This document shows, in pieces, positions 769 through 14,163 of a stretch of 64,000 bases of DNA (positions within the stretch are counted from its first letter, which is position 1; each line of letters begins with the position of its first letter). The notes beneath the pieces are model-generated. The model was not told the DNA's origin. It saw nothing but the letters and a program-made list of their open reading frames with translations, and ran no database searches. The position numbers and the translations under genes were made by a program. This DNA comes from a virus. The stretch lies in IMG/VR virus record IMGVR_UViG_3300045141_000199, positions 1 to 64,000 of that record; one strand, written 5' to 3'.

Positions 769-786
769 CTGCTACGATCGCCGCCG

Positions 787-1176
787 ATGGCGACGAACAA
801 TCAGCTCGTACGCAAGGGGCGCAAGGCCAAGCACCGGAAAGTCAAGCGGCCTGCGCTGGAAGGCGCTCCGCAGAAGCGCGGCGTCTGCATGCGCGTGTAC
901 GTCATCAAACCGCGCAAGCCGAACTCGGCCTTGCGGAAGGTCGCTCGCGTGCGCCTGGTCAACGGCATGGAGGTAACGGCCGCCGTACCTGGCGAGGGCC
1001 ACAACCTACAGGAGCACTCCGTAGTTCTGTTGAGGGGCGGAAGCGTGCCCGATCTCGGCGGAGTGAACTACAAGGTAATCCGCGGCGTGCTCGATTGCGC
1101 TGGCGTCGCCGATCGCGAGCAGTCGCGCTCGAAGTACGGTAAGAAGAAAGACGAGGCGCGCAAGAAAAAGCGGTGA
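787..1176 (+). CDS. rpsL: 30S ribosomal protein S12 (uS12), divergent phage-borne copy
   Basis: [10 protein letters not shown]...PQKRGVC...[13 protein letters not shown]...[10 protein letters not shown]...RSKYG is colinear with S12; start placed at ATG 787, 8 nt after TGc-TACGAT. Confidence 0.96.
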
Positions 1177-1201
1177 CAGACGGGAGCGTAGAATCGCTCC
1201 C

Positions 1202-2563
1202 ATGCGATTGAAGCGAATCATCGCAGTCATTGCAGGATGTGTCGCCTTCTCGGCAGGCACAGCTCAAGCGGCGGTCCCTGGGCCAGCTCTTTCCGCTGAA
1301 GGCCACTCTTTGAAATGGACGGCCGTAGCTAGCGCTACCCAATATAAGCTCTACGGCTCGTACGAAAATCAGCACGTCGCGTACGTGATCTCGGGCTTAT
1401 CGGCCACACCAAGTGAAATTGTCGGCCAATCCGTGCGCTGGAAAGTCAAAGCAATGGCGCCGGCCGTATCGCGTTGGTCTAATACAGTAACGATCGCTTA
1501 TTCTGAAGGCGAAAGCCAGAAAGAAAAAGAAGAACGCGAAGCTAAAGAAAAAGCTGAACGCGAACAGAAAGAACGTGAAGAAAGAGAACTGAAAGAAAAA
1601 ATCGAACGGGAAGAACGCGAAGCTAAAGAAAAAGAAGAACGAGAAAAAGAACAGACCGGCGAAGCTGGCAAGGTGAAAAACCGCTTAGATGCCAGAACGG
1701 AATACGATGGTATCCCGGTCGAATGGTTTCAGAAACTTACTAGATTATTAGCCTACCCAACGGCCGGCGACCGCTATCCGAAAGCCGGCGTTGAAACCGT
1801 TGCTTATCACGACGCATGGACGACCTGGGGCTCAAGCGGCGCTACTCATAAGAGTGAATACGTAGCCTGGGTTCACCGTGATAAGGAAATCGGCAAATAC
1901 GCCGGCCAATTCATGGACGATATCAACTATGGGCCTAGCGCTGGCAATAAGGCCGGAACGGACGCCCAATACCGTGAATTAGTCGAAGCCGTTCGAGCTG
2001 AGTTAGGGCCGGCCGGCATAATTGAGATGAACTCTCAATACGCCGATATCTGGCCGCAAATCAAGGCTAAAAACCCTGATGTGCTAAAAGCCCTTGAATA
2101 TGTCAATGTTGTTACTAAGGAGTTTAACGTTGATGCCACGTCAGGCATTAACAGCTCTGATAGATACCGAGAATTCATGGAATTCACTGATTTCCTAGAG
2201 AGCAAAAAAATTGGCATTACGATGTCGGGTGACTCGAATCATAATGGCAGCGCCGAACGTGAGTACAGTTTGGCAACTTACTACTTAGTGAATGACGGAC
2301 TAGACTATATCGGATTTGCTAAACAGTCACCATCGAGCCAGTATCCAGGATTACTGCTCAACATCGGCAACGCAACCAGTCCACGCGAACGCTCATCTAG
2401 TGGTGTCTGGAAACGTAGCTTCGCTAAAGGCGTTGCTTACACTGTTGAGCCGGGCGCAGCAACTCAGACGATAACCCTAGCTAAACCAATGAAAAGGCTA
2501 GACGGCACCACAGTTAGCAGCGTAACGTTGGCCCCCGCTAACGGCGCCGTGCTACAATTCTAA
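1202..2563 (+). CDS. secreted protein with E/K coiled-coil linker and putative glycoside hydrolase (GHL15-like TIM barrel) domain
   Basis: Signal peptide ending AQA; EKEERE repeats; FMDDIN and WKRSFAKGV motifs resemble GHL15-type proteins (family recalled, not searched). Confidence 0.55.
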   Translation: MRLKRIIAVIAGCVAFSAGTAQAAVPGPALSAEGHSLKWTAVASATQYKLYGSYENQHVAYVISGLSATPSEIVGQSVRWKVKAMAPAVSRWSNTVTIAYSEGESQKEKEEREAKEKAEREQKEREERELKEKIEREEREAKEKEEREKEQTGEAGKVKNRLDARTEYDGIPVEWFQKLTRLLAYPTAGDRYPKAGVETVAYHDAWTTWGSSGATHKSEYVAWVHRDKEIGKYAGQFMDDINYGPSAGNKAGTDAQYRELVEAVRAELGPAGIIEMNSQYADIWPQIKAKNPDVLKALEYVNVVTKEFNVDATSGINSSDRYREFMEFTDFLESKKIGITMSGDSNHNGSAEREYSLATYYLVNDGLDYIGFAKQSPSSQYPGLLLNIGNATSPRERSSSGVWKRSFAKGVAYTVEPGAATQTITLAKPMKRLDGTTVSSVTLAPANGAVLQF

Positions 2564-2565
2564 GC

Positions 2566-2855
2566 ACAAGCAGCCCCAGCGACGATGGCTAAGCAACAGC
2601 TTAGAGGAAGTTCGGGGCACCCCCTATAGGGAAACCTATAGGTTCACAGGCCGGCGGGAGTTAGTAACCTAAACGTTAGAACCGCGAGCGCGCCGCACGG
2701 CGCAGTTGCCAAGGCTGGGTGCGATCCCAAAACAGGCACCTAAGGTTCGCTAGGGTGACTAAGGTAGGGAGCGGTACTCCGTTGGGAGGCGCGGCCGACG
2801 GCCGCAGATAGATCATCGTCTAAAACAGAACCCCGGCTATGCTGGGGCTGCTTGT
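2566..2855 (+). ncRNA. rnpB: RNase P RNA (compact variant)
   Basis: Perfect 15-bp P1 (2566-2580/2841-2855); P2 gacgatg/catcgtc; P3; CR-I GAGGAAGTTCGGGGCAC pairs with CR-V ACAGAACCCCGGCTAT to form P4 with bulged U; P15 with GGTA motif; AGATAGAT CR-IV. Confidence 0.93.
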
Positions 2856-2867
2856 AATATAAGGTAA

Positions 2868-3194
2868 ATGGCGAACCTCGTAGTCAAGCTAAATGACACC
2901 TACCCTCCTGTAGAAGCGACTCTAGAATCAACCGTTAGCGGGTCGCTGGCGCCAATCGATTTAACTCCCGCTACCTCGATCTTCTTTATTATGAAGCTGG
3001 GCGTAGTAAAAATCAAGGAATTAGCTACGGTTATCGATGCTGTAAACGGCAAGGTACAGTATAAATGGAAAGCTGGGGATACTTCCACAGTAGGCATCTA
3101 TCGCGTTGAGTGGGAGATACACTGGACCGGCGGCATCGAGACGATCCCTAACGAAGGCTACGATACGATCGAAATTCAGGAAGACCTTGGCTAA
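2868..3194 (+). CDS. BppU-like baseplate/virion Ig-fold protein
   Basis: VKLNDTYP...GKVQYKWKAGDT...EWEIHW...TIPNEGY pattern typical of BppU N-terminal domains. Confidence 0.65.
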   Translation: MANLVVKLNDTYPPVEATLESTVSGSLAPIDLTPATSIFFIMKLGVVKIKELATVIDAVNGKVQYKWKAGDTSTVGIYRVEWEIHWTGGIETIPNEGYDTIEIQEDLG

Positions 3195-4894
3195 TGGAGG
3201 TATTTGCTAATACCAAAGTTCCCTTAGGAAACCTGACCAAAGCTCTAACTGCTTCAACCGGCGACAACAAACTGAAAATCTCCACGGCCGCGCCCGTGGC
3301 TTTACGCGCTGGAACATTCCGCATCATGGTCGATCAGGAGATCATGATGGTAACAGTGGCGCCCGGGACCACCGTGGAATGGCAGGTCGAACGCGCGATC
3401 GAGGGCAGCCCGCTCGAAATACACGCCAACACGGCCCCCGTCTCGCACAAGTTCACGGCTGGGGCGGCTGCCCTGTTCCTACAGACAGCCAGCCCTACTC
3501 TAATTACAGGGTCTGTAGCTGAAAATTTTGTCCCGACAGGCACTTCTATACCGGGAGTTGCGGCCTGGGCCGAAAGCGTGGGGGCTACGAAAGCGTGGGT
3601 TGAAGAACATTTCCTAGAGAGCGAACACGTAACCGAACTCCGAGGCTTTGCAAATGGAGTCCCTAGCGGATCGGGCGGAGTAGCTAATGCCGGCACGATT
3701 CCTTTCGGAATTGGCCTCGGAATAATGAAGCAAATCCCTCTTGTGCTGTTAGTGCAAGAATTAGCGGGGCTAAGGCTAGATATAGAAACCACGCCAGTAA
3801 CTACTGCCATAACTTTGGCTTATGGTAAAGCCTACAAACTGGAAACGCCTGGCCTGGTGTACAAAATCGAAGTGGCTTCAACGTCTGGACTGGAAATCCT
3901 GGTTGAGAACACATCATCGGGCGAAGTCAAACTCAAAGGAAAGTTCGGCGAAGAAACCGAAACGACGATCATCCTTAAAAACAAAGAAGCCATAACGTAT
4001 AAGACGGACATTCACGGCTGGCTTTTCCCTCTAACTTACAGCCGAACGGCTGCTCAAATCCAGGAAATCGCGGTGCCAAAGGGCACAAACCGCGCTGCAA
4101 TTGGCTTCGCAGAAGGCTTTGAAGCCGGCGGTAAAGCCAACAGCTCGACTACGCTGCTGAAAGGCGCGTTTGTCGGCGTTGTAAACGGCAAAGCTCCAAC
4201 GGATGGCACATTCGCGTTGGGTGATTGGGTCATTGACCGCTCGAACGGCATGACCTGGGTGTGCTCGGTCGCCGGAACTCCCGGAACGTGGATTAACGAA
4301 TCTACTAATTACCTAACTAAGAATTCGATCGATGCGGTTGCATCCGGGTTTGACGCCCAAACATTCGATATTCCTAACGATGAAAAAGCACCTGTCAAAG
4401 AAAACGTGCATTTCGTGAAGATCATGATTCCGATCACCACGAAAATCGGTAAAGTCTACATGATTATTCCGACCGGCGGAAAAGGCGCCGCCATAGCAGC
4501 CACAAGTCGCCTAGGCATTTACGGCAAACCTGTAGCGGGCGTTTCTACGAGACTGTGGGAATCAGGCTCGATGGAAACACAATTTGCAGAAGAAAATACC
4601 ATGCTGAAAATAGCGGTGTCACCCAACATCAACATAACCGGCGGTCCCGAAGAATTCATATGGATAGCGGTTCTTGGTGTGGGAACCACAATGCCTAAAT
4701 TCGCCTCCGCGCTAGGAATTGGAACGCCGGCCGTGCAGAACACCGGAGTTACCGCAAGTGAAATGCGCTTCGGTATCGACAAAAATACACCAAAAACCAC
4801 GCTGCCTGCGTCATATACGACGGCTACCGAATTCTTAAAGACAAGCTCGACCGCGGCCGCGGCGCCGTTCTTTTGGGCGGCGGTGAGCAAATAA
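3194..4894 (+). CDS. putative tail fibre/virion structural protein
   Basis: 566-aa G/T/A-rich ORF; PTDGTFALGDW...WVCSVAGTPGTW hinge motif common in tail spikes; TAATG coupling. Confidence 0.6.
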   Translation: MEVFANTKVPLGNLTKALTASTGDNKLKISTAAPVALRAGTFRIMVDQEIMMVTVAPGTTVEWQVERAIEGSPLEIHANTAPVSHKFTAGAAALFLQTASPTLITGSVAENFVPTGTSIPGVAAWAESVGATKAWVEEHFLESEHVTELRGFANGVPSGSGGVANAGTIPFGIGLGIMKQIPLVLLVQELAGLRLDIETTPVTTAITLAYGKAYKLETPGLVYKIEVASTSGLEILVENTSSGEVKLKGKFGEETETTIILKNKEAITYKTDIHGWLFPLTYSRTAAQIQEIAVPKGTNRAAIGFAEGFEAGGKANSSTTLLKGAFVGVVNGKAPTDGTFALGDWVIDRSNGMTWVCSVAGTPGTWINESTNYLTKNSIDAVASGFDAQTFDIPNDEKAPVKENVHFVKIMIPITTKIGKVYMIIPTGGKGAAIAATSRLGIYGKPVAGVSTRLWESGSMETQFAEENTMLKIAVSPNINITGGPEEFIWIAVLGVGTTMPKFASALGIGTPAVQNTGVTASEMRFGIDKNTPKTTLPASYTTATEFLKTSSTAAAAPFFWAAVSK

Positions 4895-5224
4895 ATGCAG
4901 ATTCCTAGCTTATTACCTGAATTGCTTGGTTCAACCTCTGGCGGCGGTGAATCGACATCGGTCGTTGAAATCTTTCAGGCGTCTGGTTATGGCGATGATT
5001 TCCTTGGAAACCTTGCCTGGGGCGGAGATTTCGTTGAAACCACCGTTACGATCATCGAAGTTACGCCGTCTCCGATTGAACCGCCGACAAAGGCACCTAT
5101 TTTTGGGTTGGTGTCGGCCGCGCCCCTCAGAGTGCTTATATCTAAAGGCAATTTGAACGACAGAAAATCGGGCGCAACCCTAACCCCTTACAAAGCTAAG
5201 AGCCACTTCTATGCCGGACAGTAG
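4895..5224 (+). CDS. hypothetical protein
   Basis: ORF abutting both neighbours in the operon. Confidence 0.55.
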   Translation: MQIPSLLPELLGSTSGGGESTSVVEIFQASGYGDDFLGNLAWGGDFVETTVTIIEVTPSPIEPPTKAPIFGLVSAAPLRVLISKGNLNDRKSGATLTPYKAKSHFYAGQ

Positions 5225-5888
5225 AAAGAATTTCTCAGTTAGCACGGTGGCGAAAGCCCCTGAACCGCCGACGACGGGCCTCAGCCTGGAAGTTACGGCC
5301 GGTGAGGGCGTACGCTTTCCTACGCCGCCATTCAATGCGGTGGTAGCTCCCGAAAAAGAAATCGCCACGCCCGAAAATGCTGAGGTTATTCGGGTGACGG
5401 CAATTTCTGTGAACAAATTCACGATCGTTCGCAAACAAGAGAGCAGCGTAGCTCAGCCAATAGCGGCCGGCTTCAGGATTTACTCGGGACAAACCGATAA
5501 GGTCCTGAAAGATATCGAAGCTGGCTTGGTTGGACCGGCCGGTCCTACGGGGGCTACTGGCCCGCCCGGAACCGAACTCGCGCTAGGCGTTGCGGTTACA
5601 ACTACCCCGCGGGTTGTTAAAAAAACCGACGCTGGCAAATCACTTGACGTAAACAGCGCCGTAACCGTGACCATCAAGGTCGAACCGTTCGGCGTAGAAG
5701 GCATACCTGAAGGTAGCGTGTTCGAAATTCTGAAACTAGGAACAGGTAAAGTCAAAATCGAATTTGTCAGCCCGGCAACTGCAATTCCCGTTGCTGCGAC
5801 TTACGAACTTAGGGAAACCGGATCGATCGCTGGTCTGCGGAAAATAGATGGAGCGAATAAATGGGCGATCAGCGGAGATTACGTCTAA
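5211..5888 (+). CDS. putative virion fibre protein with short collagen-like stretch
   Basis: N-terminal AEVIRVTAIS...TIVRKQE module; GPAGPTGATGPPG; C-terminal WAISGD. Confidence 0.6.
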   Translation: MPDSRKNFSVSTVAKAPEPPTTGLSLEVTAGEGVRFPTPPFNAVVAPEKEIATPENAEVIRVTAISVNKFTIVRKQESSVAQPIAAGFRIYSGQTDKVLKDIEAGLVGPAGPTGATGPPGTELALGVAVTTTPRVVKKTDAGKSLDVNSAVTVTIKVEPFGVEGIPEGSVFEILKLGTGKVKIEFVSPATAIPVAATYELRETGSIAGLRKIDGANKWAISGDYV

Positions 5889-8089
5889 TGCGCGGCCGTA
5901 GGATTTCAACTGAGCGCGGCAAAGTAGTGAAACCGCCTCCTACGATTTTGCCGCAGGGATTGTACTCATGGGGGTTTGACTACGAGGGGGCGCTCGGCGG
6001 CGGCTACGAGCATTATGGCCAAGGTTTCTCTTTCCCTCAAGGCGTAATCACGGTCGATAAAGTAGTAGACATAGCCTGCGGCGAGCGCCATACGATTGTC
6101 GCCAAAGAAAATGGCGCGATCTACATGTGGGGTACCAAGAGGATTGGTGTTCAAGGCGACGGAGCCGGAACCGACCTAGCTGGCGAAGAATCACAGCCTA
6201 CCCCATTGCAGGTCATGGGCGGGATTCCGTTATGGAAAGACGAATTCTTTGAAGATAAATCGAAACCACCGAAAACATTTGAACTAAAAGAAAGTGAAGC
6301 GCCGGTAGCTCCGCTTATGGCGACTTCCCCAACAAACATTCTTATACCCTGCACGCAAGTTGCGGCCGCCAATATTACTGCCTTTGCTCGTACCGCCGAC
6401 GGTCGCGTGCTGGCGTGGGGTTCGGGCGCAGACGTAGGCTTGCTGGCTAACGGCTGGCACCCGGAACACTCAGAATTTCCCCAGCGTAAATACGAAGCTG
6501 GCAAATTACGGCCGCAGCGCGCCCCATGGTGGGTCCAAACTGGCCCGCCGATTCAGGCCGTAGCTCCTGGTGAAACGAATATCCTCAAAGGTGTCAAGGA
6601 AGTTGCTGCTACTTTCTTCTGCGCGTATTTCCTAAAGGAAAACGGCGAAGTTTGGTATTGCGGTTCACCTACTCAAGTAGAAGACGTTATCTACGCTGAA
6701 CCCGAGCCTCTATGGGCGGCGGAAGGTGATCTTCGCGCTGTAGAAATTGATTGTGGACACGATCAATACACTTTGCGGCTCAATAATGGTGAAGTTCGCG
6801 TAGTCGGCTATTGCAAGGAAGGTATGTGGGGAACCGGAGTCGAAGAGGAAAAAGAACTCAAAAAAAATGTTACTAGGGAAGTCAAGACACCAGAAATTTC
6901 TCCAGGCGTGCCGCTAACTGGCGTGATCCAGATATCACAGGGCCAATACAATGTAAAGGCGCTAAAAAGCGATGGAACCCTCTGGACATGGGGATCGAAT
7001 GGAACTTACCCCGGCAACAACCCAACCGTTTTCAACGATGAACCTTCGCAGGGGCTTGGCGCTCCCATAGAGCGGCCGCCTACAAAGCGGCCGGTTCAGA
7101 TAACCTCGCTAGGAAATCAAGTAAAAGAAATCCGTTGCGGAGGCATGATCCGCGGAACGGGAACTTTCGGGGGCGATGTGTGTATCGCGTTGATGAAAGA
7201 CGAAACCATTAGGACGTGGGGGAAGAACAACGACACCGATACCGGCCCTTCTAACTTTCACGGTCAGGGAACCGGAACTCTTGGCGATACAACCTACGAG
7301 AATAAAGGGGCGCCAACCCCGGTGGCGCTCAGCAACATTACCAAAGTAGAAACTGGACAGGCACATATGGTTGTCGTCCAGCAACCTGGAGCGCCCGCAA
7401 CGCCTACGATAAAAGCGACTATAGCCGGCAAAGTTGTAACGGTCGAATGGGAACCCGTAGCAGGAGCGGCCGGAGAAATGCCAACATGGAGGCTGCCGGA
7501 ATCGTGGGACGTTCTTATTCAACGCCAGGGAGAAAATCCCGCCACGAAAAAATCGGAGGCCGTCCAGCGTAAAAACAAACTGTCTTACGCTACGCGAAGT
7601 CAGGCGTTTACTGTCACGACCGAACCTTGGCCTGGAGCACCTAAAACGTTTGAAATAAGTGTTATCGAGAACGCAAAAGGAGAATCGCCGGCTATTACTA
7701 CGCCTGGTGCGATTCCTTACAGCGGTGATCCAGGGATAGGAATAAACGCAGTTTTGCTTTCGTCGTCGGGAGGCAAACTCAAAGTAGAATGGGCCAACCC
7801 CGTAAAAGAAGAATTAGGCTGGTATGTTGAGTGGCAACGTAACGAAGAATATCTCGACAAAAATGGCAAACTTACGAAAGACAACTTTGTCCGCGAGCCA
7901 GAAATCCAAAACCCGGCAGCGCGCTCATATGAATGGACCCCAACCCCTTCTCCTCACGGCCTTACTACTACACAGTTTGTCGTGGAAGTCTATGGAACCT
8001 TCGGCGGCCGCACAAAGGCCGGCGGATCAAATGAAGATGCAGGCTCGTATAGAAAGCGCGTAGCTTTCATCGAAGTTCCTACCTCGTAA
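5888..8089 (+). CDS. RCC1/BLIP-II repeat beta-propeller protein with C-terminal Fn3-like domains
   Basis: Repeats IACGERHT...GAIYMWG, DGRVLAWG, DGTLWTWG; start placed at the TAATG overlap (5888). Confidence 0.8.
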   Translation: MRGRRISTERGKVVKPPPTILPQGLYSWGFDYEGALGGGYEHYGQGFSFPQGVITVDKVVDIACGERHTIVAKENGAIYMWGTKRIGVQGDGAGTDLAGEESQPTPLQVMGGIPLWKDEFFEDKSKPPKTFELKESEAPVAPLMATSPTNILIPCTQVAAANITAFARTADGRVLAWGSGADVGLLANGWHPEHSEFPQRKYEAGKLRPQRAPWWVQTGPPIQAVAPGETNILKGVKEVAATFFCAYFLKENGEVWYCGSPTQVEDVIYAEPEPLWAAEGDLRAVEIDCGHDQYTLRLNNGEVRVVGYCKEGMWGTGVEEEKELKKNVTREVKTPEISPGVPLTGVIQISQGQYNVKALKSDGTLWTWGSNGTYPGNNPTVFNDEPSQGLGAPIERPPTKRPVQITSLGNQVKEIRCGGMIRGTGTFGGDVCIALMKDETIRTWGKNNDTDTGPSNFHGQGTGTLGDTTYENKGAPTPVALSNITKVETGQAHMVVVQQPGAPATPTIKATIAGKVVTVEWEPVAGAAGEMPTWRLPESWDVLIQRQGENPATKKSEAVQRKNKLSYATRSQAFTVTTEPWPGAPKTFEISVIENAKGESPAITTPGAIPYSGDPGIGINAVLLSSSGGKLKVEWANPVKEELGWYVEWQRNEEYLDKNGKLTKDNFVREPEIQNPAARSYEWTPTPSPHGLTTTQFVVEVYGTFGGRTKAGGSNEDAGSYRKRVAFIEVPTS

Positions 8090-8108
8090 AGCACTCGTCG
8101 CTAAGATG

Positions 8109-8117
8109 TGCTATAGT
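8109..8117 (+). promoter_or_regulatory. extended -10 promoter of tRNA cluster 1
   Basis: TGcTATAGT; the same TGnTATAGT precedes cluster 2 (10291-10299) and cluster 3 (12683-12691). Confidence 0.7.
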
Positions 8118-8168
8118 TATCCGTCCGGTTGATAGCCGGCCTCGCCCCACAGGGATGTGGGGCTCCAC

Positions 8169-8241
8169 GGGGGTTTAGCTCAGTTGGGAGAGCGCCTGTT
8201 TTGCAAGCAGGAAGTCAAGGGTTCGAGTCCCTTATCCTCCA
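8169..8241 (+). tRNA. tRNA-Ala(UGC)
   Basis: Cloverleaf with G3:U70, anticodon TGC. Confidence 0.95.
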
Positions 8242-8243
8242 TC

Positions 8244-8315
8244 GGACGATTAGCTCAGTGGGAGAGCTTTCGGTTTACACCCGGAGAGTCATAGGTTCGA
8301 ATCCTATATCGTCCA
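8244..8315 (+). tRNA. tRNA-Val(UAC)
   Basis: Cloverleaf, loop TT TAC AC. Confidence 0.93.
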
Positions 8316-8319
8316 TAAC

Positions 8320-8394
8320 GGTGAATTAGCTTAGTCCGGGCAAAGCACCCGTCTGATACGCGGGCGATCCAAGGTTCGAATCCTTGATTCACCA
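8320..8394 (+). tRNA. tRNA-Ile(GAU)
   Basis: Cloverleaf, loop CT GAT AC. Confidence 0.93.
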
Positions 8395-8399
8395 CTCTC

Positions 8400-8472
8400 G
8401 GTTCCGTAGCTCAATGGGAAGAGCGTCCGTCTTATATGCGGTCGGTTCTAGGTTCAAGTCCTAGCGGAACTA
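8400..8472 (+). tRNA. tRNA-Ile(UAU)
   Basis: Cloverleaf, loop CT TAT AT. Confidence 0.88.
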
Positions 8473-8476
8473 CTTC

Positions 8477-8549
8477 GCAGCATTAGCTCAGTTGGTAGAG
8501 CGCCACCGTGCCATGGTGGAGATCATGAGTTCGAATCTCATATGCTGCT
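8477..8549 (+). tRNA. tRNA-Gly(GCC)
   Basis: Cloverleaf, loop GT GCC AT, discriminator U. Confidence 0.93.
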
Positions 8550-8554
8550 TACTT

Positions 8555-8628
8555 GCCTCCGTAGCATAATTGGATAGTGTGGCGGACTTTTAATCCGAAA
8601 GATGTGGGTTCGAATCCCACCGGGGGTA
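8555..8628 (+). tRNA. tRNA-Lys(UUU)
   Basis: Cloverleaf, loop CT TTT AA. Confidence 0.9.
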
Positions 8629-8632
8629 CTTC

Positions 8633-8728
8633 GCGTGAGTAGCTGAATTGGCAGAGCGGCCGTCAAAACGTCGCCCCAGCACTGGTTTTTCACACCAGCG
8701 GATGCGGGTTCGAGTCCCGTCTTGCGCA
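8633..8728 (+). tRNA. tRNA-Glu(UUC) with ~23-nt insertion between D and anticodon arms
   Basis: GCGTGAG/CTTGCGC acceptor, CTGGT-TTTTCAC-ACCAG anticodon arm, intact T arm; 96 nt. Confidence 0.75.
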
Positions 8729-8734
8729 CTACAC

Positions 8735-8807
8735 AGGCCGCTAGCTCAACTGGAAGAGCAAGACCCTCTTAAGGTCGAGGTTATGGGTTCGATTCCCATG
8801 CGGCCCA
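8735..8807 (+). tRNA. tRNA-Lys(CUU)
   Basis: Cloverleaf, loop CT CTT AA, A1:C72 mismatch. Confidence 0.88.
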
Positions 8808-8809
8808 TC

Positions 8810-8884
8810 GCACCCATAGCTCAGTGTGAGAGCACCTGCCGTTCTAAGGCAGGAGGTCCGGCGGTTCGATTCCCCGTGGGTGCA
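8810..8884 (+). tRNA. atypical tRNA, anticodon UCU (Arg?) with 6-bp anticodon stem
   Basis: CCTGCC-GTTCTAA-GGCAGG; bulged C in T stem. Confidence 0.7.
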
Positions 8885-8887
8885 TAC

Positions 8888-8960
8888 GCCATCGTAGCTC
8901 AGCCGGTAGAGCACTTCCTTGGTATGGAAGAGGTCCAGAGTTCGATTCTCTGCGTTGGCT
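8888..8960 (+). tRNA. tRNA-Thr(GGU)
   Basis: Cloverleaf, loop TT GGT AT. Confidence 0.93.
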
Positions 8961-8962
8961 TC

Positions 8963-9029
8963 GCCTCCTTTTGTGGCAGCGGACGCGCCTTGTAAGCGTG
9001 GCAGCAGGGTTCGATTCCCTGAGGGGGCT
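8963..9029 (+). tRNA. tRNA-Thr(UGU), shortened D region
   Basis: 67 nt; acceptor, anticodon (CT TGT AA) and T arms intact; only 14 nt in the D region. Confidence 0.8.
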
Positions 9030-9032
9030 TAC

Positions 9033-9104
9033 GCTCTCAAGGTGTTCATGGTGGCATCGCGCTTTCGTAATGCGCAGGATCGAGTTCGAATCTCGATGAG
9101 AGCT
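9033..9104 (+). tRNA. tRNA-Thr(CGU)
   Basis: Cloverleaf, loop TT CGT AA. Confidence 0.87.
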
Positions 9105-9112
9105 TTTACAGT

Positions 9113-9179
9113 GCCTATCGTCGCCGCGTTGACAGTAGACGATGGGCCGCATCCGAGCCATAACGCGGTAAAGCTCGGA
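9113..9179 (+). ncRNA. unclassified kissing-hairpin structured RNA inside tRNA array
   Basis: 10-bp and 7-bp hairpins whose loops are complementary over 9 bp. Confidence 0.6.
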
Positions 9180-9188
9180 CAGAATTTC

Positions 9189-9260
9189 GCAGGAGAGATG
9201 TTACTGGCTGCATATCGGCCTTCCACGCCGAGTGAGCGGGTTCGAGTCCCGTCTCCTGCT
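9189..9260 (+). tRNA. tRNA-Gly(UCC)
   Basis: Cloverleaf, loop CT TCC AC. Confidence 0.9.
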
Positions 9261-9265
9261 TACAA

Positions 9266-9338
9266 GCTGCGATAGCTCAGTTGGTAGAGCTTGCCGTTGA
9301 AGCCGGCAGAGTCGGCGGTTCGAGTCCGTCTCGCAGCA
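9266..9338 (+). tRNA. tRNA-Phe(GAA)
   Basis: Cloverleaf, loop TT GAA GC. Confidence 0.9.
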
Positions 9339-9648
9339 CTTCGATATCTAGATTCTCAGGGCGCATTTGCTCGTTTATCCACGCGTCAAGATTTACTGTT
9401 ATTCGCGCGTGTTGTATTCTTACCCATCGTTGGAACTCGGCCGACTTTGCCATGCGCACAAACGCTTTCTTCTTGTTCTGAAGTTGCGTGCGCTCCTCAC
9501 GCGATTCGCCGCGGGCGCCGCTAGGCGAATGAATTACACGAACTCCTGTGTCCCGCTTGTCTTTATTCTGGCCACCCTTACCTCCGCAGCGGAAGGTCTG
9601 TACTACGCAATCTTTGATCGTGACGGTTAGTATCTTTTCACGCGCCAA
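9277..9648 (-). CDS. stand-alone class I release factor GGQ domain protein (ArfB/RF-1-domain-like peptidyl-tRNA hydrolase)
   Basis: FRCGGKGGQNKDKRDTGVRVIH...REERTQLQNKKKA; no codon-recognition domain. Confidence 0.88.
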   Translation of the reverse strand: MAREKILTVTIKDCVVQTFRCGGKGGQNKDKRDTGVRVIHSPSGARGESREERTQLQNKKKAFVRMAKSAEFQRWVRIQHARITVNLDAWINEQMRPENLDIEVLRDGLEPPTLPASTASSTN

Positions 9649-10249
9649 CGAAAGCCTCTGGTGAATCGGCCTTCAAATGCTCGGGCTCGTAACAGCCGAG
9701 TATGTAGCCATCTAAGAGCGCCTTCAAATTCACGGGGCTGTAATGTGTTTGCTCGACCGACACATTAATCTGGTTGGCGCTAAACGGCGTAAAGTCCTGG
9801 CCCTTTCCGCCATATCCGTTGTTGTGGATATGGCCATGCACGCGAATATAAAACTTGTGGTATTCGTCGTGCTTGAGCGGATAGTGCGCAAAGCTCACAT
9901 GGTAAAGGCGGTTGCCGGCCGTGTAGGGGAGCGCGAACGGCTTTACGATTTTGAAACCGCACTCACGATAAAAGCTGGGGCGCTGCCGATCGTGATTACC
10001 GAGGATCAGATACTTAGGCGAGCCCGTGAGATGTTTCGAGATAACATGCTTGAACAGGCCGTTACTCTTCCAGACGAGATCGCCTAGATGTAAGAGAGCA
10101 GCGTCCGGCGGGACAGCGCTAGCCCATTCCTCCATAACGATCTGCTCATGGTCTGTCGGCCTGTGGCAGTACCCAATGATGTTGTTATGGCCGAAATGTG
10201 AATCAGATGTGATCCATGTGCTCGCTGGATCGATAAGTGGTACGCTCAT
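9638..10249 (-). CDS. calcineurin-like metallophosphoesterase
   Basis: SDSHFGH, HLGD, GNHD, HYP, HGHIH motifs. Confidence 0.9.
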   Translation of the reverse strand: MSVPLIDPASTWITSDSHFGHNNIIGYCHRPTDHEQIVMEEWASAVPPDAALLHLGDLVWKSNGLFKHVISKHLTGSPKYLILGNHDRQRPSFYRECGFKIVKPFALPYTAGNRLYHVSFAHYPLKHDEYHKFYIRVHGHIHNNGYGGKGQDFTPFSANQINVSVEQTHYSPVNLKALLDGYILGCYEPEHLKADSPEAFVGA

Positions 10250-10308
10250 CTAGGAATCATATCATAACTATCTCGGCTGCGCTTGGTTTGTGATATAGTA
10301 TTTAGCTC

Positions 10309-10389
10309 GCTGCGATAGCGAAGTGGACAAACGCGGGTGGCTGTAAACCATCTCCCTCGGGTACCTAGGTTCGAATCCTAGCCGCAGCA
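10309..10389 (+). tRNA. tRNA-Tyr(GUA)
   Basis: Cloverleaf with variable arm, loop CT GTA AA. Confidence 0.92.
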
Positions 10390-10392
10390 TAC

Positions 10393-10476
10393 GGAAGGTG
10401 GCGGGCAGGTGCCCAAACTGGATTTGAACCCCAGGCTACGGCTAGCGTCGTAAGGTTTCGATTACTTCACCTTCCG
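10393..10476 (+). tRNA. tRNA-Ser(UGA), 8/4 cloverleaf
   Basis: 8-bp acceptor GGAAGGTG/CACCTTCC, 4-bp T stem, long variable arm, G73. Confidence 0.82.
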
Positions 10477-10480
10477 CTTT

Positions 10481-10569
10481 GGTTAGTTGGCAGAGAGGCC
10501 GAATGCACTGGTTTGCTAAACCAGCGTGGGACTAAAAGACCACCGAAGGTTCGAATCCTTCACTAACCG
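10481..10569 (+). tRNA. tRNA-Ser(GCU)
   Basis: Cloverleaf with long variable arm, loop TT GCT AA. Confidence 0.92.
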
Positions 10570-10645
10570 CTTAATTCCGCTGTGGGCCACTGGTCTACAG
10601 GCGGGGCGATTTGCCCGCGTTTCGCCTTCAAGCAACCGGGTACAT

Positions 10646-10716
10646 GGCGCAGTGGCCGACTGGTTAGGCGGTTGCCTGCAAAGCTTCTAAATCCGGTTCG
10701 ATTCCGGGCTGCGCCT
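10646..10716 (+). tRNA. tRNA-Cys(GCA)
   Basis: Cloverleaf, loop CT GCA AA, U73. Confidence 0.9.
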
Positions 10717-11049
10717 CTAAATGTCGTCGTAAATCGGTTCAGGCCGATAGCCAATCCGGCGCCGAACGCGATCGAGATTCGGGCAGATAAACGACGGCTC
10801 GCAGCACCCGCCTTCTAAAGCAGTCAACTCGTCAAAGGTCATATCCGGCCGCAGTGGACAAGTACATTGCCTGGCCTCTTGTTCGCGTATCCCCTCTTCA
10901 ATGATTCGACGTATGCCGGCGTCTGAATGGGCTGCCGGCATTGCGTAGGCTGGTTTGTGCTCAGGGCAATTGCGCGGCCGCCTGCCGCGCTTGAGTGGCG
11001 CCTCGTAATCATGATCGCCGATCTCGCAGTAAAGGATTCGCGTGCTCAT
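10717..11049 (-). CDS. Cys/His-rich hypothetical protein
   Basis: Start placed at MSTRILYCEIGDH (ATGA overlap with upstream ORF); CxxxxH...CxxH and further Cys. Confidence 0.6.
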   Translation of the reverse strand: MSTRILYCEIGDHDYEAPLKRGRRPRNCPEHKPAYAMPAAHSDAGIRRIIEEGIREQEARQCTCPLRPDMTFDELTALEGGCCEPSFICPNLDRVRRRIGYRPEPIYDDI

Positions 11050-11216
11050 ACTCGCTCCCAGCCATCGAATCGACTCCTTGCGGGCAAGGCGCCTTTGTCG
11101 CCCTGCTCGCGCAGCAACGTCCAAGCGTCATCATACCCGATCGCGTAAAACTTGCCAGCCGGGGATTCGATCAGCATCCGCGGCCGTGCTTGAATGACTT
11201 CCTTACTTTTAGTCAA
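11046..11216 (-). CDS. small hypothetical protein
   Basis: Hand-translated TTG-start ORF MTKSKEVIQARPRMLIESPAGKFYAIGY..., overlapping both neighbours. Confidence 0.45.
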   Translation of the reverse strand: MTKSKEVIQARPRMLIESPAGKFYAIGYDDAWTLLREQGDKGALPARSRFDGWERV

Positions 11217-12642
11217 TTAACTTCCACGCCCTTTCGTACAGCCACTCGTTAGTGTTTAGCTTCGGTTGAGATAGAACCTCATGCAAAAGTTGACGCTGCA
11301 TCTCGCCGATCGCTCGGCCCTCATAGCCCATTTCGCGGAGTTCGGTTCCGTCGATCGCCAATTCCTTGACGCTGATTGGTACGCCGGCCTTCTGCGCTCG
11401 TACTTGCTCGGCGGCAATCCATGACAGCACTTCCATCGCCTCAGTGATATCTCCGCCCTTGCCAATCACGTCGCATACGCGATGCGTGATTAGATCGCGC
11501 AGTAGCTCATCCCCTAGTTCCGAGCGTAGCCGGCGTATCTTGAACGGACGGATGTTCTCATGCAAGGCGAGCATGTGGCGCTCGATTAGCGTTTTTACGT
11601 CCTGCATTAGACGGTGCGGGGCGTTCAAACGATGCAGGGCTTCATCGGCAAGTTTGGCGCTCCAATACTCATGCGAGTAAAGAGAAGGGACTCCGGCTCC
11701 TAGTTCGACAGCTCGCTTTGGTGCGAGCGCGTAGTAGTGCTGAAGCCCCTCCTCGTCAGTCCACGCCATCGTAGGCTTCCCGCAATCATGGAAAAGTAGC
11801 GCCATACGCACGCGCATGGGCGCGTGGGAGTGCATGTTAGCGGCCGCCTGCACAGCATCAAAGGTATGGTCGCTTGTCGTCTTTTCGTGATAGCGCGAGC
11901 GTTGGTTGTAATCGATCATCGGCGCTAGCTCAGGCAAGAGAATCTGAAGCACGCCAGTTGCGGCCGCTAGTTCAAGAGCGTAACCAGGGCTGGCACCCAT
12001 TAGAATTCCTTCCAGCTCGGTTAGTGCCGTGCCGCTAACTCCCTTTTGAGTCAGGCCAGTCACGGCTCCCGAATGCTCCTGCATTTGGCTATACGCTTCC
12101 GGCGACAGCCGGAAGTGCGGCAGCTTACTGATAAAACGAAGCGCCCGCAGCATCCTAAGTGGGTCTTCCTCGAAAGAGCCGGGGTGTGTCGTGTGAATTA
12201 GCTTTTCGTTGATATCCTTAGCGCCGCCTAGCGGATCGATTAGCGATCCACTGCGAACATCGCGATAAATAGCGTTGATCGTGAAATCGCGTCGCTGGGC
12301 GTCTAGCTCAAGCGGCAGGTTCTCGTTGATAATCATCTCGAAGGCATGCCGCCCATCGCCTGTAGAGCGCTCTGCGCGTGGCAGCACAACCTCAAGCAGG
12401 CCGAGTCCTCGGACCTGCGCCCGGACCCCGATCTGAGGGCCGTTGCCGCGGAGGCGAAGGGAGCCAATCTTGGCTCCTGCGCCCGATAGCGCAGCCGCTA
12501 CGTCCCATAGGGGCGCTCCTCGGACTACGTAATCGGAGTCCTTGCTTTGGCGGCCTAGCAGCTCATCCCGAACCGATCCGCCCACGCGATAGATTTCGGG
12601 AAGGTCGAGAGAGGCCATGAACTGATCGGGAGTCGTGCGCAT
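11209..12642 (-). CDS. cca: class II CCA-adding tRNA nucleotidyltransferase with HD domain
   Basis: VGGSVRD...DSDY, RRDFTINA, EDPLRMLR, LFHDCGK; start placed 6 nt after TGg-TACGAT. Confidence 0.93.
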   Translation of the reverse strand: MRTTPDQFMASLDLPEIYRVGGSVRDELLGRQSKDSDYVVRGAPLWDVAAALSGAGAKIGSLRLRGNGPQIGVRAQVRGLGLLEVVLPRAERSTGDGRHAFEMIINENLPLELDAQRRDFTINAIYRDVRSGSLIDPLGGAKDINEKLIHTTHPGSFEEDPLRMLRALRFISKLPHFRLSPEAYSQMQEHSGAVTGLTQKGVSGTALTELEGILMGASPGYALELAAATGVLQILLPELAPMIDYNQRSRYHEKTTSDHTFDAVQAAANMHSHAPMRVRMALLFHDCGKPTMAWTDEEGLQHYYALAPKRAVELGAGVPSLYSHEYWSAKLADEALHRLNAPHRLMQDVKTLIERHMLALHENIRPFKIRRLRSELGDELLRDLITHRVCDVIGKGGDITEAMEVLSWIAAEQVRAQKAGVPISVKELAIDGTELREMGYEGRAIGEMQRQLLHEVLSQPKLNTNEWLYERAWKLID

Positions 12643-12706
12643 CGCTAAATCGTACCACATCTCGCTAAGTGGCGCTAAGTTATGATATAGTTATCAATCC
12701 AGTTGA

Positions 12707-12777
12707 TGCGGAATCGTCTAAAGGCAGGACCGCGGGCCTTGAACCCGCTTGTCTAGGTTCGAATCCTAGTTCCGCAG
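12707..12777 (+). tRNA. tRNA-Gln(UUG)
   Basis: Cloverleaf with U1:A72, loop CC TTG AA (C33). Confidence 0.9.
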
Positions 12778-12808
12778 CTAACGGGAAGGGTTAAACCTTC
12801 CCGGCCAA

Positions 12809-12879
12809 TGGGGAGTCGTCTAACGGCAAGACGCGCGGCTCTGAATCGTAAAATGTGGGTTCGATTCCTACCTCCCCAG
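12809..12879 (+). tRNA. tRNA-Gln(CUG)
   Basis: Cloverleaf, loop CT CTG AA. Confidence 0.9.
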
Positions 12880-12887
12880 CTTATCGA

Positions 12888-12960
12888 TCTAGCGTGGTGT
12901 CAACGGCAGCACGGTCGGCTGTTAACCGATTAGGTCCAGGTTCGAATCCTGGCGCTAGAG
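12888..12960 (+). tRNA. tRNA-Asn(GUU)
   Basis: Cloverleaf, loop CT GTT AA. Confidence 0.93.
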
Positions 12961-12964
12961 CTTA

Positions 12965-13035
12965 CGGGGTGAAGTGTTATGGCTGCACCGGGCGCTTGGA
13001 ACGCTCTAGTCAGAGTTCAATTCTCTGCTCCCCGA
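12965..13035 (+). tRNA. tRNA-Pro(UGG)
   Basis: Cloverleaf with C1:G72, loop CT TGG AA. Confidence 0.9.
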
Positions 13036-13040
13036 TATCC

Positions 13041-13124
13041 GCCGACATGATGGAATTGGTAGACGTGCTGGTCTTAGAAACCAGTGTCCGCAAGGACGTA
13101 AGGGTTCGAGTCCCTTTGTCGGCA
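13041..13124 (+). tRNA. tRNA-Leu(UAG)
   Basis: Type II cloverleaf, loop CT TAG AA. Confidence 0.93.
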
Positions 13125-13129
13125 TATAA

Positions 13130-13213
13130 GCCTGTGTGGCGGAATTGGTATACGCGGCGGACTTAAAACCCGCTGGTCTTCGGGCCTTTCGAGTTCGAGT
13201 CTCGACACAGGTA
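13130..13213 (+). tRNA. tRNA-Leu(UAA)
   Basis: Type II cloverleaf, loop CT TAA AA. Confidence 0.92.
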
Positions 13214-13216
13214 TAA

Positions 13217-13299
13217 GCGTGAGTGGTGAAACGGTATACACAGCGGGCTCAAATCCCGCCGGTCGGAAGATCATGCGAGTTCGATTCTCGCCTCACGTA
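13217..13299 (+). tRNA. tRNA-Leu(CAA)
   Basis: Type II cloverleaf, loop CT CAA AT. Confidence 0.92.
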
Positions 13300-13303
13300 T
13301 TTC

Positions 13304-13377
13304 CCCTCTATAGCTCAGTGGACAGAGCACCAGGCTACGAACCTGGGTTGTCGTGAGTTCGAATCTCGCTAGGGGGT
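13304..13377 (+). tRNA. tRNA-Arg(ACG)
   Basis: Cloverleaf, loop CT ACG AA. Confidence 0.92.
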
Positions 13378-13382
13378 TACAA

Positions 13383-13456
13383 GCTGCTGTAGCTCAGTTG
13401 GCCAGAGCGTCCGCCTGTCGAGCGGAGAGTCGAGGGTTCGAGTCCCTTCAGTAGCG
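13383..13456 (+). tRNA. tRNA-Asp(GUC)
   Basis: Cloverleaf, loop CT GTC GA, G73. Confidence 0.92.
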
Positions 13457-13458
13457 CT

Positions 13459-13532
13459 GTGACGGATGCCAAAGTGGTCGAGGCGTCAGGTTGTGATCCT
13501 GGCTAGAGCGGGTTCGAGTCCCGTCCGTCACC
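13459..13532 (+). tRNA. tRNA-His(GUG), no encoded G-1
   Basis: Cloverleaf, loop TT GTG AT, C73; base at -1 is T. Confidence 0.9.
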
Positions 13533-13625
13533 CTTCCCTTGCAAAGGAACGGTAGACTGCTTAAAGCAGTTGGCCGCAATGCTGCCGGCGGTCGAGGCTG
13601 AGACGCTTTCACTTGCCGGCATCCA

Positions 13626-13694
13626 GGGAGATAGGTCATGGTGACCAAGCGGATTCCAAACCCGCAGGCGAGCGTTCAATTCGTTCATCTCCCG
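13626..13694 (+). tRNA. tRNA-Trp(CCA), atypical D arm
   Basis: GGGAGAT/ATCTCCC acceptor, GGTCA-TGG-TGACC D arm, loop TT CCA AA. Confidence 0.82.
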
Positions 13695-13698
13695 CTCC

Positions 13699-13766
13699 GG
13701 CTCTGATTTTGGTATTCGACCGCGTTTCATACGCGCGGGATGAAGGTTCGACTCCTTCCAGAGCTA
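13699..13766 (+). tRNA. tRNA-CAU (elongator Met or Ile2), no D stem
   Basis: GGCTCTG/CAGAGCT acceptor, loop TT CAT AC, intact T arm; D region unpaired. Confidence 0.78.
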
Positions 13767-13768
13767 TC

Positions 13769-13840
13769 GCCTCTATAGCTCAGCGGAAGAGCTGCCGCCT
13801 TCTAAGCGGCCGGCCGTGAGTTCGAATCTCACTAGGGGCT
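13769..13840 (+). tRNA. tRNA-Arg(UCU)
   Basis: Cloverleaf, loop CT TCT AA. Confidence 0.93.
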
Positions 13841-13843
13841 TTC

Positions 13844-13916
13844 GTCCTTGTAGCTCAGCGGATAGAGCATCAACCTCCTAAGTTGATGGCCGTGGGTTCG
13901 ATTCCCACCAAGGACT
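13844..13916 (+). tRNA. tRNA-Arg(CCU)
   Basis: Cloverleaf, loop CT CCT AA. Confidence 0.93.
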
Positions 13917-13987
13917 TGCGGCGAAGTGGTCTGGTGACCATTCGAGCCTCATAAGCTTGAGAGGGTGGTTCAATTCCCCCGCCGCCA
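13917..13987 (+). tRNA. initiator-like tRNA-fMet(CAU), atypical
   Basis: 1:72 mismatch, loop CT CAT AA, TTCAA T loop, 6-bp D stem with TGGT tetraloop. Confidence 0.78.
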
Positions 13988-13988
13988 C

Positions 13989-14063
13989 GCAGGGGTCTAC
14001 TAACTGGCCTAAGTGCCGACGTTCTCAGCGTCGATGATGCGGGTTCGAATCCCGTCCCCTGTA
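13989..14063 (+). tRNA. tRNA-Glu(CUC)
   Basis: Cloverleaf, loop TT CTC AG. Confidence 0.85.
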
Positions 14064-14068
14064 CTCAG

Positions 14069-14097
14069 AAAGGCCCGCTAATTTAGCGGGCCTTTTG
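14069..14097 (+). terminator. intrinsic terminator closing tRNA cluster 3
   Basis: aaaggcccgcta-att-tagcgggcctttt. Confidence 0.85.
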
Positions 14098-14163
14098 TCG
14101 TTATGGAGAGCCCATATTATTTAGGGATTCGCGGGAGAAGGGCCTTAGCGCCGCTCTAACGAG

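Follow-up and report, generated by a model that had tools for sequence, protein, structure and literature searches.

A probable tRNA supply and maturation island with a reduced class-A RNase P-type RNA, and a lineage-specific ribosomal protein uS12 gene, in an uncultured soil phage

Bases 1-64,000 of the IMG/VR virus record IMGVR_UViG_3300045141_000199 (hereafter the window) probably contain a phage island for tRNA supply and maturation, to which a gene for ribosomal protein uS12 has been added in one lineage. The island comprises three clusters that together hold 34 tRNA genes, a reduced class-A RNase P RNA, a putative CCA-adding enzyme with an HD domain, a calcineurin-like metallophosphoesterase and a GGQ/RF-1-domain protein; a Pth2-type peptidyl-tRNA hydrolase is encoded elsewhere in the same genome. 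The record (G000) is linear, measures 89,773 bp and is estimated by CheckV to be 74% complete, and we describe it as an uncultured soil phage with a genome of about 90 kb, a non-jumbo phage; the one public run with matching DNA is a soil metagenome, a possible source of the record. Gene identities, layout, conservation and the fold of the RNA are reported below, with comparisons to a relative, G001 (80,397 bp, 66% complete), whose large terminase (TerL) is 71% identical to that of the window. The original prediction, made from the sequence, had described the region as a self-contained system for tRNA production, repair and ribosome rescue.

The three clusters hold 14, 4 and 16 tRNA genes and represent all 20 amino acids, exactly as predicted. 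ARAGORN returned 32 of the 34, and the other two were recovered with Rfam and with ARAGORN under its relaxed or intron options. One of these (8633-8728, Rfam tRNA 55.1 bits) is seen by ARAGORN only with the intron option; the other, a tRNA-Ser(UGA) at 10393-10477, was found by relaxed ARAGORN and reaches 34 bits against RF01852, below the cut-off of 47. The gene at 8633-8728 is 96 nucleotides (nt) long: its acceptor stem, D arm and T arm are normal, and an insert of about 23 nt separates the D arm from the anticodon arm; the arm CUGGU/UUUUCAC/ACCAG presents the anticodon UUC, which we read as Glu, whereas ARAGORN reports an Ala tRNA with a 7-nt intron. The matching slot in G001 holds a 93-nt gene that ARAGORN labels Thr(tgt). 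When the acceptor stems were located by script, none of the 34 tRNAs was followed by an encoded CCA after the discriminator (0/34), the trailers starting with T or CT, which agrees with the earlier claim. Spacers within clusters measure 0-8 nt in 27 of 31 cases, in line with the 0-10 nt that had been given for most of them; the remaining four measure 84, 76, 31 and 93 nt (9105-9188, 10570-10645, 12778-12808 and 13533-13625, respectively). These four long spacers could be non-tRNA small RNAs freed by tRNA processing.

Each cluster is preceded by a TGnTATAGT box, TGNTATAGT, as had been proposed. The box occurs five times in the 64 kb against 0.96 expected, a total of at least five being reached in 1 of 100 shuffles, and three of the five copies (8109, 10291 and 12683) lie 9-51 nt 5' of the first tRNA of a cluster. 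G001 has promoter boxes at clusters 2 and 3, with TGCTATAGT about 12 nt 5' of its tRNA-Tyr. Out of 61 sense codons, the tRNA set decodes 50 under strict wobble rules and 60 if family boxes are read by four-way U34 wobble; the latter correspond to 99.3% of the 20,879 codons in 75 long open reading frames (ORFs), and the sole codon left unread is CGG (0.7%). Five family boxes, accounting for 17.4% of phage codons, depend on four-way U34 wobble; for Ala, Val, Pro, Ser-UCN and Leu-CUN, the window set lacks isoacceptors with G34 or C34. tRNAs for Val-GAC, Leu-GAG and Pro-CGG are found in G001, which has no S12, and not in the window, and tRNAs for Leu-UAA and Thr-UGU are present in the window and not listed by ARAGORN in G001.

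The predicted RNase P RNA upstream of the arrays was recovered as a match to RF00010, found in a 15-kb search. It is located 5.3 kb upstream of the first array, after S12 and a gene for a 453-aa (amino acid) protein. The E values of the window RNA (2e-14) and of its G001 counterpart (1.8e-5) indicate homology to this family despite low bit scores. E. coli M1 RNA is a bacterial class A RNase P RNA, and compared with this class, the phage RNA retains P1-P5, P15, a P18-like hairpin, the P4 pseudoknot with its bulged U, the GAGGAA...CGG and ACAGAACCC..GGCU strands and the L15 GGU. It differs in its length of 286 nt, its specificity domain of about 82 nt, a shifted P4, its viral location and the lack of an accompanying rnpA. 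In P4, AGU-U-CGGGG can pair with CCCCGGCU, leaving a bulged U, in a register one base off the model consensus; the P4 strands (CR-I/CR-V-flanked) are invariant in 4/4 aligned relatives. The specificity domain is reduced to two hairpins, one of 8 bp capped by GAAA and one of 5 bp capped by GCAC. The G001 homologue is 356 nt long and syntenic, lying 2.3 kb upstream of its tRNA cluster 1, and a different 8-bp hairpin occupies there the position of the GAAA-capped one of the window.

The fold was examined by covariation in a MAFFT alignment of the window RNA, the G001 homologue and two metagenome relatives (L044 and L045), from which RNAalifold derived a consensus of 56 pairs. In this consensus, 89.3% of the cells pair, and 30 of the 56 pairs show changes on both sides, compared with 4-9 such pairs in slid controls; none of 500 shuffles reached any of five covariation measures. 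Both-side changes are spread over the helices P1 (8/9), P2 (4/8), P3 (4/6) and P15 (3/4). The P4 variant is shared with other viruses. Among virus records carrying the 3' P4 motif, 11 of 20 have an RF00010 match and three of those 11 are at least 99% complete; one of the 11 has terminal repeats (168 kb, 191 bits), and two others are estimated at 99-100% completeness. Metagenome contigs with the P4 5' 18-mer also have the 3' motif in 9 of 25 cases, 200-295 nt downstream, and six of these nine carry 2-24 tRNAs in the stretch covered. The same 18-mer gave 10 matches in 185,579 species genomes; because none of the 10 has the 3' motif, they provide no lead to a donor or host. Matches to a 19-mer from J5/15 in seven viral loci (L017-L023) were discarded as coding sequence with no nhmmer match, six of them belonging to one gene family by eye.

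Between the clusters, the minus strand carries three protein genes, which form two units that diverge from the cluster 2 and cluster 3 promoters, and their Pfam and PHROG matches bear out the CCA/HD enzyme, metallophosphoesterase and GGQ hydrolase proposed for this strand. The CCA/HD enzyme unites a pol-beta head, an RNA-binding body and an HD domain in one protein; beyond the matches in Table 1, it has a match to PF12627 (PolyA_pol_RNAbd) at 5.2e-4 (20.2 bits, below the cut-off of 22) and one to phrog_2244 at 5.5e-60. It stays below the NCBIfam equivalog cut-offs of its two best matches, PRK10885 (multifunctional CCA addition/repair; 151.4 against 451 bits) and TIGR02692 (133.3 against 438.8), and its sequence does not separate CCA-adding from A-adding or poly(A) activity, so that its name here is putative. 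The GGQ protein contains the motif GGKGGQ and is conserved over approximately residues 1-108. The last ~20 codons of its ORF run antisense over tRNA-Phe (9277-9339); since the alignment with the G001 homologue stops at residue 107, both the true C-terminus and the overlap are uncertain. The protein is not demonstrable as ArfB, the match to PRK09256 reaching 19.7 bits against a cut-off of 100 and covering residues 7-39 only. Another ORF, 10717-11124(-), was considered as the GGQ gene and rejected, having no GGQ motif, family match or G001 homologue.

The prediction had also placed a Pth2 and an S4-like protein at 45.6-47.5 kb. The former was confirmed by PF01981, with scores below the NCBIfam equivalog cut-offs (63.3 against 126 and 60 against 82 bits), while the S4-like ORF has no family match. 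For the latter, searches of Pfam (E up to 5), NCBIfam and PHROG gave no match, and a PDB profile search retrieved no S4 protein; two homologues were found in 5.8 billion clusters. Five of six ESM Atlas structure rows are S4 families, at template modelling (TM) scores of 0.35-0.46 and with a model confidence (pLDDT) of 0.49, and the ORF is possibly an S4-type RNA-binding domain.

Most of these parts recur in G001, which has 32 tRNAs by ARAGORN in the same three-cluster order together with the RNase P RNA. Identities between the window and G001 are 63% for the GGQ protein, 59% for the phosphoesterase, 66% for both the CCA/HD enzyme and Pth2, and 51% for the S4-like ORF. S12, the 453-aa gene next to it and the tail-fibre/RCC1 block were not found in G001, at its 66% completeness. 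A tally over 13 virus records with an RNase P-like RNA, the window's record included, points the same way: Pth2 occurs in 9, RF-1 in 7, a CCA-type PolyA_pol in 6 and S12 in 1 (G000), in a sample that was picked by the RNA motif, contains many small fragments and gives counts that stand without a control set. The conserved unit thus consists of the tRNAs with the RNase P RNA and the genes for the CCA/HD enzyme, phosphoesterase and GGQ protein, Pth2 being encoded at another place in the genome. S12, present in 1/13 records, missing in G001 and kept only in a sister contig about 92-96% identical, appears to be an addition of one narrow lineage. The expectation that the parts would travel together is borne out in G001 for all of them except S12.

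In the place of S12, G001 has an 83-nt RNA (L012:3185-3267(-), 44.6 bits) that matches only the ends of the transfer-messenger RNA (tmRNA) model and is preceded by TGATATGGT; a similar 68-nt RNA lies at L044:1235-1302(+) (58.1 bits). These 68-83-nt RNAs consist of an acceptor stem with G3:U70 and a T arm, have no tag reading frame, and adjoin the phage RNase P RNA on its upstream side in both G001 and L044.

The S12 gene encodes a full-length protein that passes the TIGR00981 equivalog cut-off and covers positions 1-123 of 124 of that model, which confirms its predicted presence upstream; compared with bacterial uS12 (rpsL), it lies outside a str operon. Its start is almost certainly the ATG at 787, within a 169-aa ORF listed from 667, because homology begins at 787, directly preceded by a hairpin-terminator and a TGCTACGAT box. 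The box at 768-778 suggests a leaderless S12 mRNA. It belongs to a set of four hairpin+TCTGCTANNNT units, at 479, 551, 681 and 768, and all four matches in the 64 kb fall within 479-778. After the third unit come a hairpin whose loop reads CCUCCU (~700-725) and then the terminator-like hairpin at 731-764; the region 479-778 also has weak Rfam matches to ar14 (37 bits) and CcsR1 (19 bits). This arrangement suggests stacked promoters, a small RNA with a C-rich loop and the leaderless S12 mRNA.

The phage S12 was compared with the 116 most similar database S12 proteins, a sample skewed toward the query (numbering from Met as residue 1). It departs from near-invariant residues in both decoding-centre loops: Val39 (T39V), Lys41 (T41K), Ser86, Pro88 and Asn94 occur in none of the 116, Gly91 in 4 and Arg43 (in place of Lys) in 12. 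In the same comparison, Val67 occurs in none and Ala66 in 3. Positions 43, 86, 88 and 91 are what we take to be the classical rpsL positions for streptomycin resistance and accuracy. The phage protein retains the N-terminal extension and the PNSA loop, as well as Asp89 in the second loop. On a sister Logan contig of 88,116 bp, S12 is 96% identical and has the same unusual residues, the CCA enzyme is 92% and the small S4-like protein 91% identical; S12 is therefore at least as conserved between the two strains as a bona fide phage enzyme. The phage uS12 most likely enters new 30S subunits and alters their decoding behaviour. Named S12 neighbours come from many phyla at 70-75% identity and indicate no single host.

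Several other S12 candidates were set aside. Matches in the phage sequence collection were bacterial contigs or unannotated fragments, and two S12 loci on viral contigs (L002 and L003) were bacterial-looking, whereas the window S12 has no rpsG/fusA context: in L003, the S12 ORF is followed by ORFs of 156 and 692 aa, taken for S7 and EF-G by size alone, and L002 has an S12 match and no tRNAs. P0005-P0007 (200-205 aa) are S12 artefacts with a duplicated segment, and the match on L049 (an 89,835-bp contig) is a chance match.

From these genes we infer the processing steps, the use of host RnpA and the purpose of the island. Three extended -10 promoters would give three polycistronic precursors with 34 tRNAs altogether. 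The phage class-A RNase P RNA, presumably with host RnpA, would cut each tRNA at its 5' end, and with spacers of 0-8 nt the same cut would also free the upstream tRNA with a very short 3' trailer. Host 3' nucleases would remove these trailers of 0-8 nt, and the phage CCA-adding enzyme would build the CCA ends, for which a burst of 34 CCA-less tRNAs would create a demand. The HD domain, perhaps together with the phosphoesterase, could clean phosphorylated 3' ends. Host synthetases would charge the tRNAs, and host modification is presumed. During translation, the GGQ protein would release peptides from stalled ribosomes and Pth2 would free dropped-off peptidyl-tRNA, returning the tRNAs to the pool. 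Because the set is a near-minimal complete decoder, the phage could translate on its own tRNA pool when that of the host is inadequate, decaying or cut. With RnpA, an RNA ligase and RtcB missing, the island would depend on host RnpA (if a protein is needed), on host 3' trimming and presumably on host modification and charging. The need for it could lie in defence nucleases, host shut-off or codon mismatch, none of which is preferred here.

Several observations weigh against this reading. The RNase P RNAs of the window (54 bits) and of G001 (19.1 bits) both score below the RF00010 gathering score of 100; the specificity domain (P7-P14, ~140 model positions) has shrunk to ~82 nt, leaving the activity putative; and the covariation comes from four MAFFT-aligned sequences, with the structure derived from the same alignment. 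No RnpA (PF00825) match was obtained in G000 or G001, so that the ribozyme would need a host protein or none. A basic 121-aa protein (14164-14529(-)) was considered as a stand-in for RnpA and rejected, with no PF00825 match and with Atlas rows of helical-repeat proteins at TM scores of about 0.5 or less for a low-confidence model. Neither record has a match to RtcB (PF01139) or RNA ligase (PF09414) at E of 0.1 or less, and no 3'-trimming enzyme was identified, 3'-trimming nucleases and synthetases not having been searched for as families. The link of the phosphoesterase to RNA is putative, its closest solved structure being an uncharacterised Aquifex protein. The records are 74% and 66% complete, and absences in them are provisional. 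Among 20 further ORFs were replication proteins, regulators and one Fic/DOC protein, and no other tRNA-processing or ribosomal protein family.

The original prediction went further and joined S12, RNase P RNA, tRNAs, CCA/HD enzyme, phosphoesterase, GGQ protein and Pth2 into one unusually complete pathway that counters the loss of tRNAs to anticodon nucleases. All parts do occur in one genome with a near-complete tRNA set, and tRNAs, CCA enzyme, calcineurin-like/HD phosphatases and PTH2 are interpreted as defences against tRNA cleavage in a framework published for jumbo phages (PMC7824862). We consider so broad a pathway decidedly unlikely: S12 occurs in 1/13 records, is missing in the closest relative available, G001, and stands 7 kb from the arrays with tail-fibre-like genes between, RnpA, RNA ligase and RtcB were not found, and a role against defence nucleases is hypothetical here. 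What endures is a conserved maturation and rescue island with S12 outside its block. "Self-contained" was an overstatement given the missing RnpA, RtcB and ligase, and "repair" fits the rebuilding of tRNA 3' (CCA) ends but not the rejoining of cut anticodon loops. A plainer account, in which the tRNAs match codon use or sustain late expression and the enzymes handle the tRNA load with no link to defence, is rather unlikely as the whole explanation. It is the classical account of phage tRNAs (Bailly-Bechet 2007 and Delesalle 2016, as cited in PMC5966550), extra rescue factors have been proposed to offset a sudden tRNA surplus (PMC5966550), and with CCA encoded in 0/34 tRNAs a CCA enzyme would be needed regardless; however, 20 amino acids and 60 of 61 codons exceed the patching of a few rare codons.

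That S12, RNase P RNA or both are recent host-derived passengers or assembly chimeras, functionless in the phage, is highly improbable. The S12 gene does start close to the end of the contig (787 nt), the bit score of the RNase P RNA stays under the Rfam threshold, and most virus ribosomal protein genes are described as single sporadic captures (PMC6375957; bioRxiv 10.1101/174177). Yet an independent Logan assembly of the soil run gives one contig over 356-2887 with 0 differences, at a depth of 7.4 compared with 7.3-8.0 in its neighbours, and spanning S12 and phage genes at equal depth it shows no sign of a chimera. The 96% identical S12 of the sister contig, with the same unusual residues, and the missing rpsG/fusA context also speak against passengers, as do the co-varying helices of the RNase P RNA and the occurrence of its P4 18-mer in no genuine RNase P RNA of the 185,579 species genomes. 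A more ambitious possibility, which we regard as very doubtful, is a partly private and mutually tuned decoding system, in which the U34-wobble tRNA set, a uS12 that relaxes or retunes proofreading to let this minimal set decode every codon, and an own RNase P with a P4 variant maturing CCA-less, near-spacerless precursors would have adapted to one another. The additional Val-GAC, Leu-GAG and Pro-CGG tRNAs of G001, which is without S12, would fit it as a hint from a single comparison. The reading we retain is the tRNA supply and maturation island with S12 as a lineage-specific addition.

The surroundings of the island are those of a phage (Table 1). Besides the portal and TerL, the window encodes a ribonucleotide reductase, a DNA polymerase, a primase and DnaB-like and SNF2 helicases. 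The best match of TerL among cultured phages is that of Tunturiibacter phage Tunturi_4 (32% identical). Neither megablast nor blastn matched the region or the RNase P RNA to a GenBank phage, and the nearest cultured phages, Tunturi_3 and Tunturi_4, lack an RF00010 match and carry no more than three tRNAs. A tail-fibre-like block sits between the RNase P RNA and the tRNAs, and the entire block is missing in G001. For the 453-aa protein between S12 and the RNase P RNA, no family above cut-off and no tblastn match in G001 were found. Doc-type enzymes modify EF-Tu, and a 148-aa ORF with a Fic/DOC domain (PF02661 9.7e-7; L014:1723-2169(-), G000 81,723-82,169) may be another translation-directed gene.

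Table 1 Features of the window described in the text, in order of position.
Feature	Position	Strand	Evidence or remark
Terminator-like hairpin	731-764		upstream of S12
Extended -10-like box TCTGCTACGAT	768-778	+	8 nt 5' of S12 ATG
Ribosomal protein uS12, 129 aa	787-1176	+	PF00164 8.8e-36; TIGR00981 192.9 bits (cut-off 112.95)
453-aa protein, function unassigned	1202-2563	+	between S12 and RNase P RNA; signal-peptide-like N-terminus, E/K-rich stretch
TGCTACAAT	~2550-2558		directly 5' of RNase P RNA
Reduced class-A RNase P RNA, 286 nt	2570-2855	+	RF00010 54 bits, E 2e-14, model positions 1-367
P1	2570-2580/2841-2851		11 bp
P2	2581-2587/2814-2820		7 bp
P3	2589-2594/2599-2604
P4	2609-2617/2831-2838
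P5	2617-2622/2717-2722
GAAA-capped hairpin	2623-2642		8 bp
L15 GGU region	2761-2770
RCC1-repeat protein, 742 aa	5861-8089		PF25390 2.7e-43; last gene of tail-fibre-like block
TGCTATAGT box	8109-8117	+	precedes tRNA cluster 1
tRNA cluster 1	8169-9339	+	14 genes: Ala, Val, Ile x2, Gly x2, Lys x2, Arg, Thr x3, Phe, 96-nt Glu(UUC)
GGQ/RF-1-domain protein, 123 aa	9277-9648	-	PF00472 4.2e-13; phrog_3122 "RF-1 domain" 1.4e-38
Calcineurin-like metallophosphoesterase, 203 aa	9638-10249	-	PF00149 2e-6; phrog_547 5.7e-35; PDB 1xm7 3.6e-11
TGATATAGT box	10291-10299	+	precedes tRNA cluster 2
tRNA cluster 2	10309-10717	+	4 genes: Tyr, Ser(UGA), Ser(GCU), Cys
Putative CCA-adding tRNA nucleotidyltransferase with HD domain, 483 aa	11209-12660	-	PolyA_pol PF01743 9.4e-20; HD PF01966 4.1e-5
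TGATATAGT box	12683-12691	+	precedes tRNA cluster 3
tRNA cluster 3	12707-14064	+	16 genes: Gln x2, Asn, Pro, Leu x3, Arg x4, Asp, His, Trp, Met x2, Glu(CUC)
tRNA-Met	13916-13988		in cluster 3; candidate for the predicted initiator-like tRNA
Terminator-like hairpin	~14068-14095		3' of tRNA cluster 3
Portal	14723-16933		PF04860 9e-49
2,071-aa ORF	30168-36383		size like tape measure; assignment by size alone
Large terminase (TerL)	43264-44736
Pth2-type peptidyl-tRNA hydrolase, 168 aa	45592-46098	-	PF01981 4.5e-20, 72.4 bits (cut-off 23)
Small basic protein, 88-92 aa, candidate S4-type RNA-binding domain	47265-47543	-

Islands of tRNA genes with CCA enzyme, Pth2 and RF-like genes are already in print (PMC5966550; PMC7824862), as the original prediction stated for some large actinophages. 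Cluster C mycobacteriophages have tRNA arrays with PTH2-like, RF-1 and tmRNA genes (Morgado & Vicente 2018, PMC5966550). In jumbo phages, Iyer et al. (2021, PMC7824862) described tRNAs, a CCA-adding enzyme, occasional calcineurin-like/HD phosphatases and PTH2 as a response to the cleavage of tRNAs, and phage tRNA sets have already been hypothesised to replace tRNAs lost to host nucleases (PMC7824862). The roles ascribed to such gene sets are to substitute for host tRNAs that have been cut and to free jammed ribosomes. The soil phage resembles both in its large tRNA arrays with PTH2-type, RF-1-domain and CCA-adding proteins; it differs in being a non-jumbo phage of ~90 kb in which no tmRNA, RNA ligase or RtcB was found, and in the addition of an RNase P RNA and uS12. 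These two components apparently are unpublished, and the interest lies in them and not in the combination. The term "RNase P" has no occurrence in the available text of PMC7824862 and of PMC7162821, and that of PMC5966550 does not mention it; in the accessible part of a 2024 RNase P review (PMC11143913), phage tRNA precursors are covered and phage-encoded P RNA is not. We found no literature description of a phage RNase P RNA or a phage uS12, and the supplementary tables of PMC6375957 and PMC7162821 may list such genes. The island adds the one RNA enzyme that every tRNA needs for its 5' maturation; an active ribozyme would mean that phages govern tRNA 5' processing besides tRNA supply, and the 286-nt RNA would be a natural minimal RNase P.

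Fourteen virus-encoded ribosomal proteins were reported by Mizuno et al. (2019, PMC6375957), with stress on loosely bound, exchangeable ones, and Al-Shayeb et al. (2020, PMC7162821) listed phage S4, S1, S21 and L7/L12. In the available text of the two papers, the set comprises bS21, bL12, bL9, HPF, bL31, bL33, bS6, uS9, uS15, S1 and S4, and neither "S12" nor "uS12" occurs in the main text of PMC6375957 as available. The uS12 of the window is like these proteins in that its gene is fixed in a phage genome, appears to be under constraint and presumably replaces the host protein. It differs from them in being a core decoding-centre protein and not an exchangeable surface one, and its entry into ribosomes would mean that phages are able to change the decoding centre itself.

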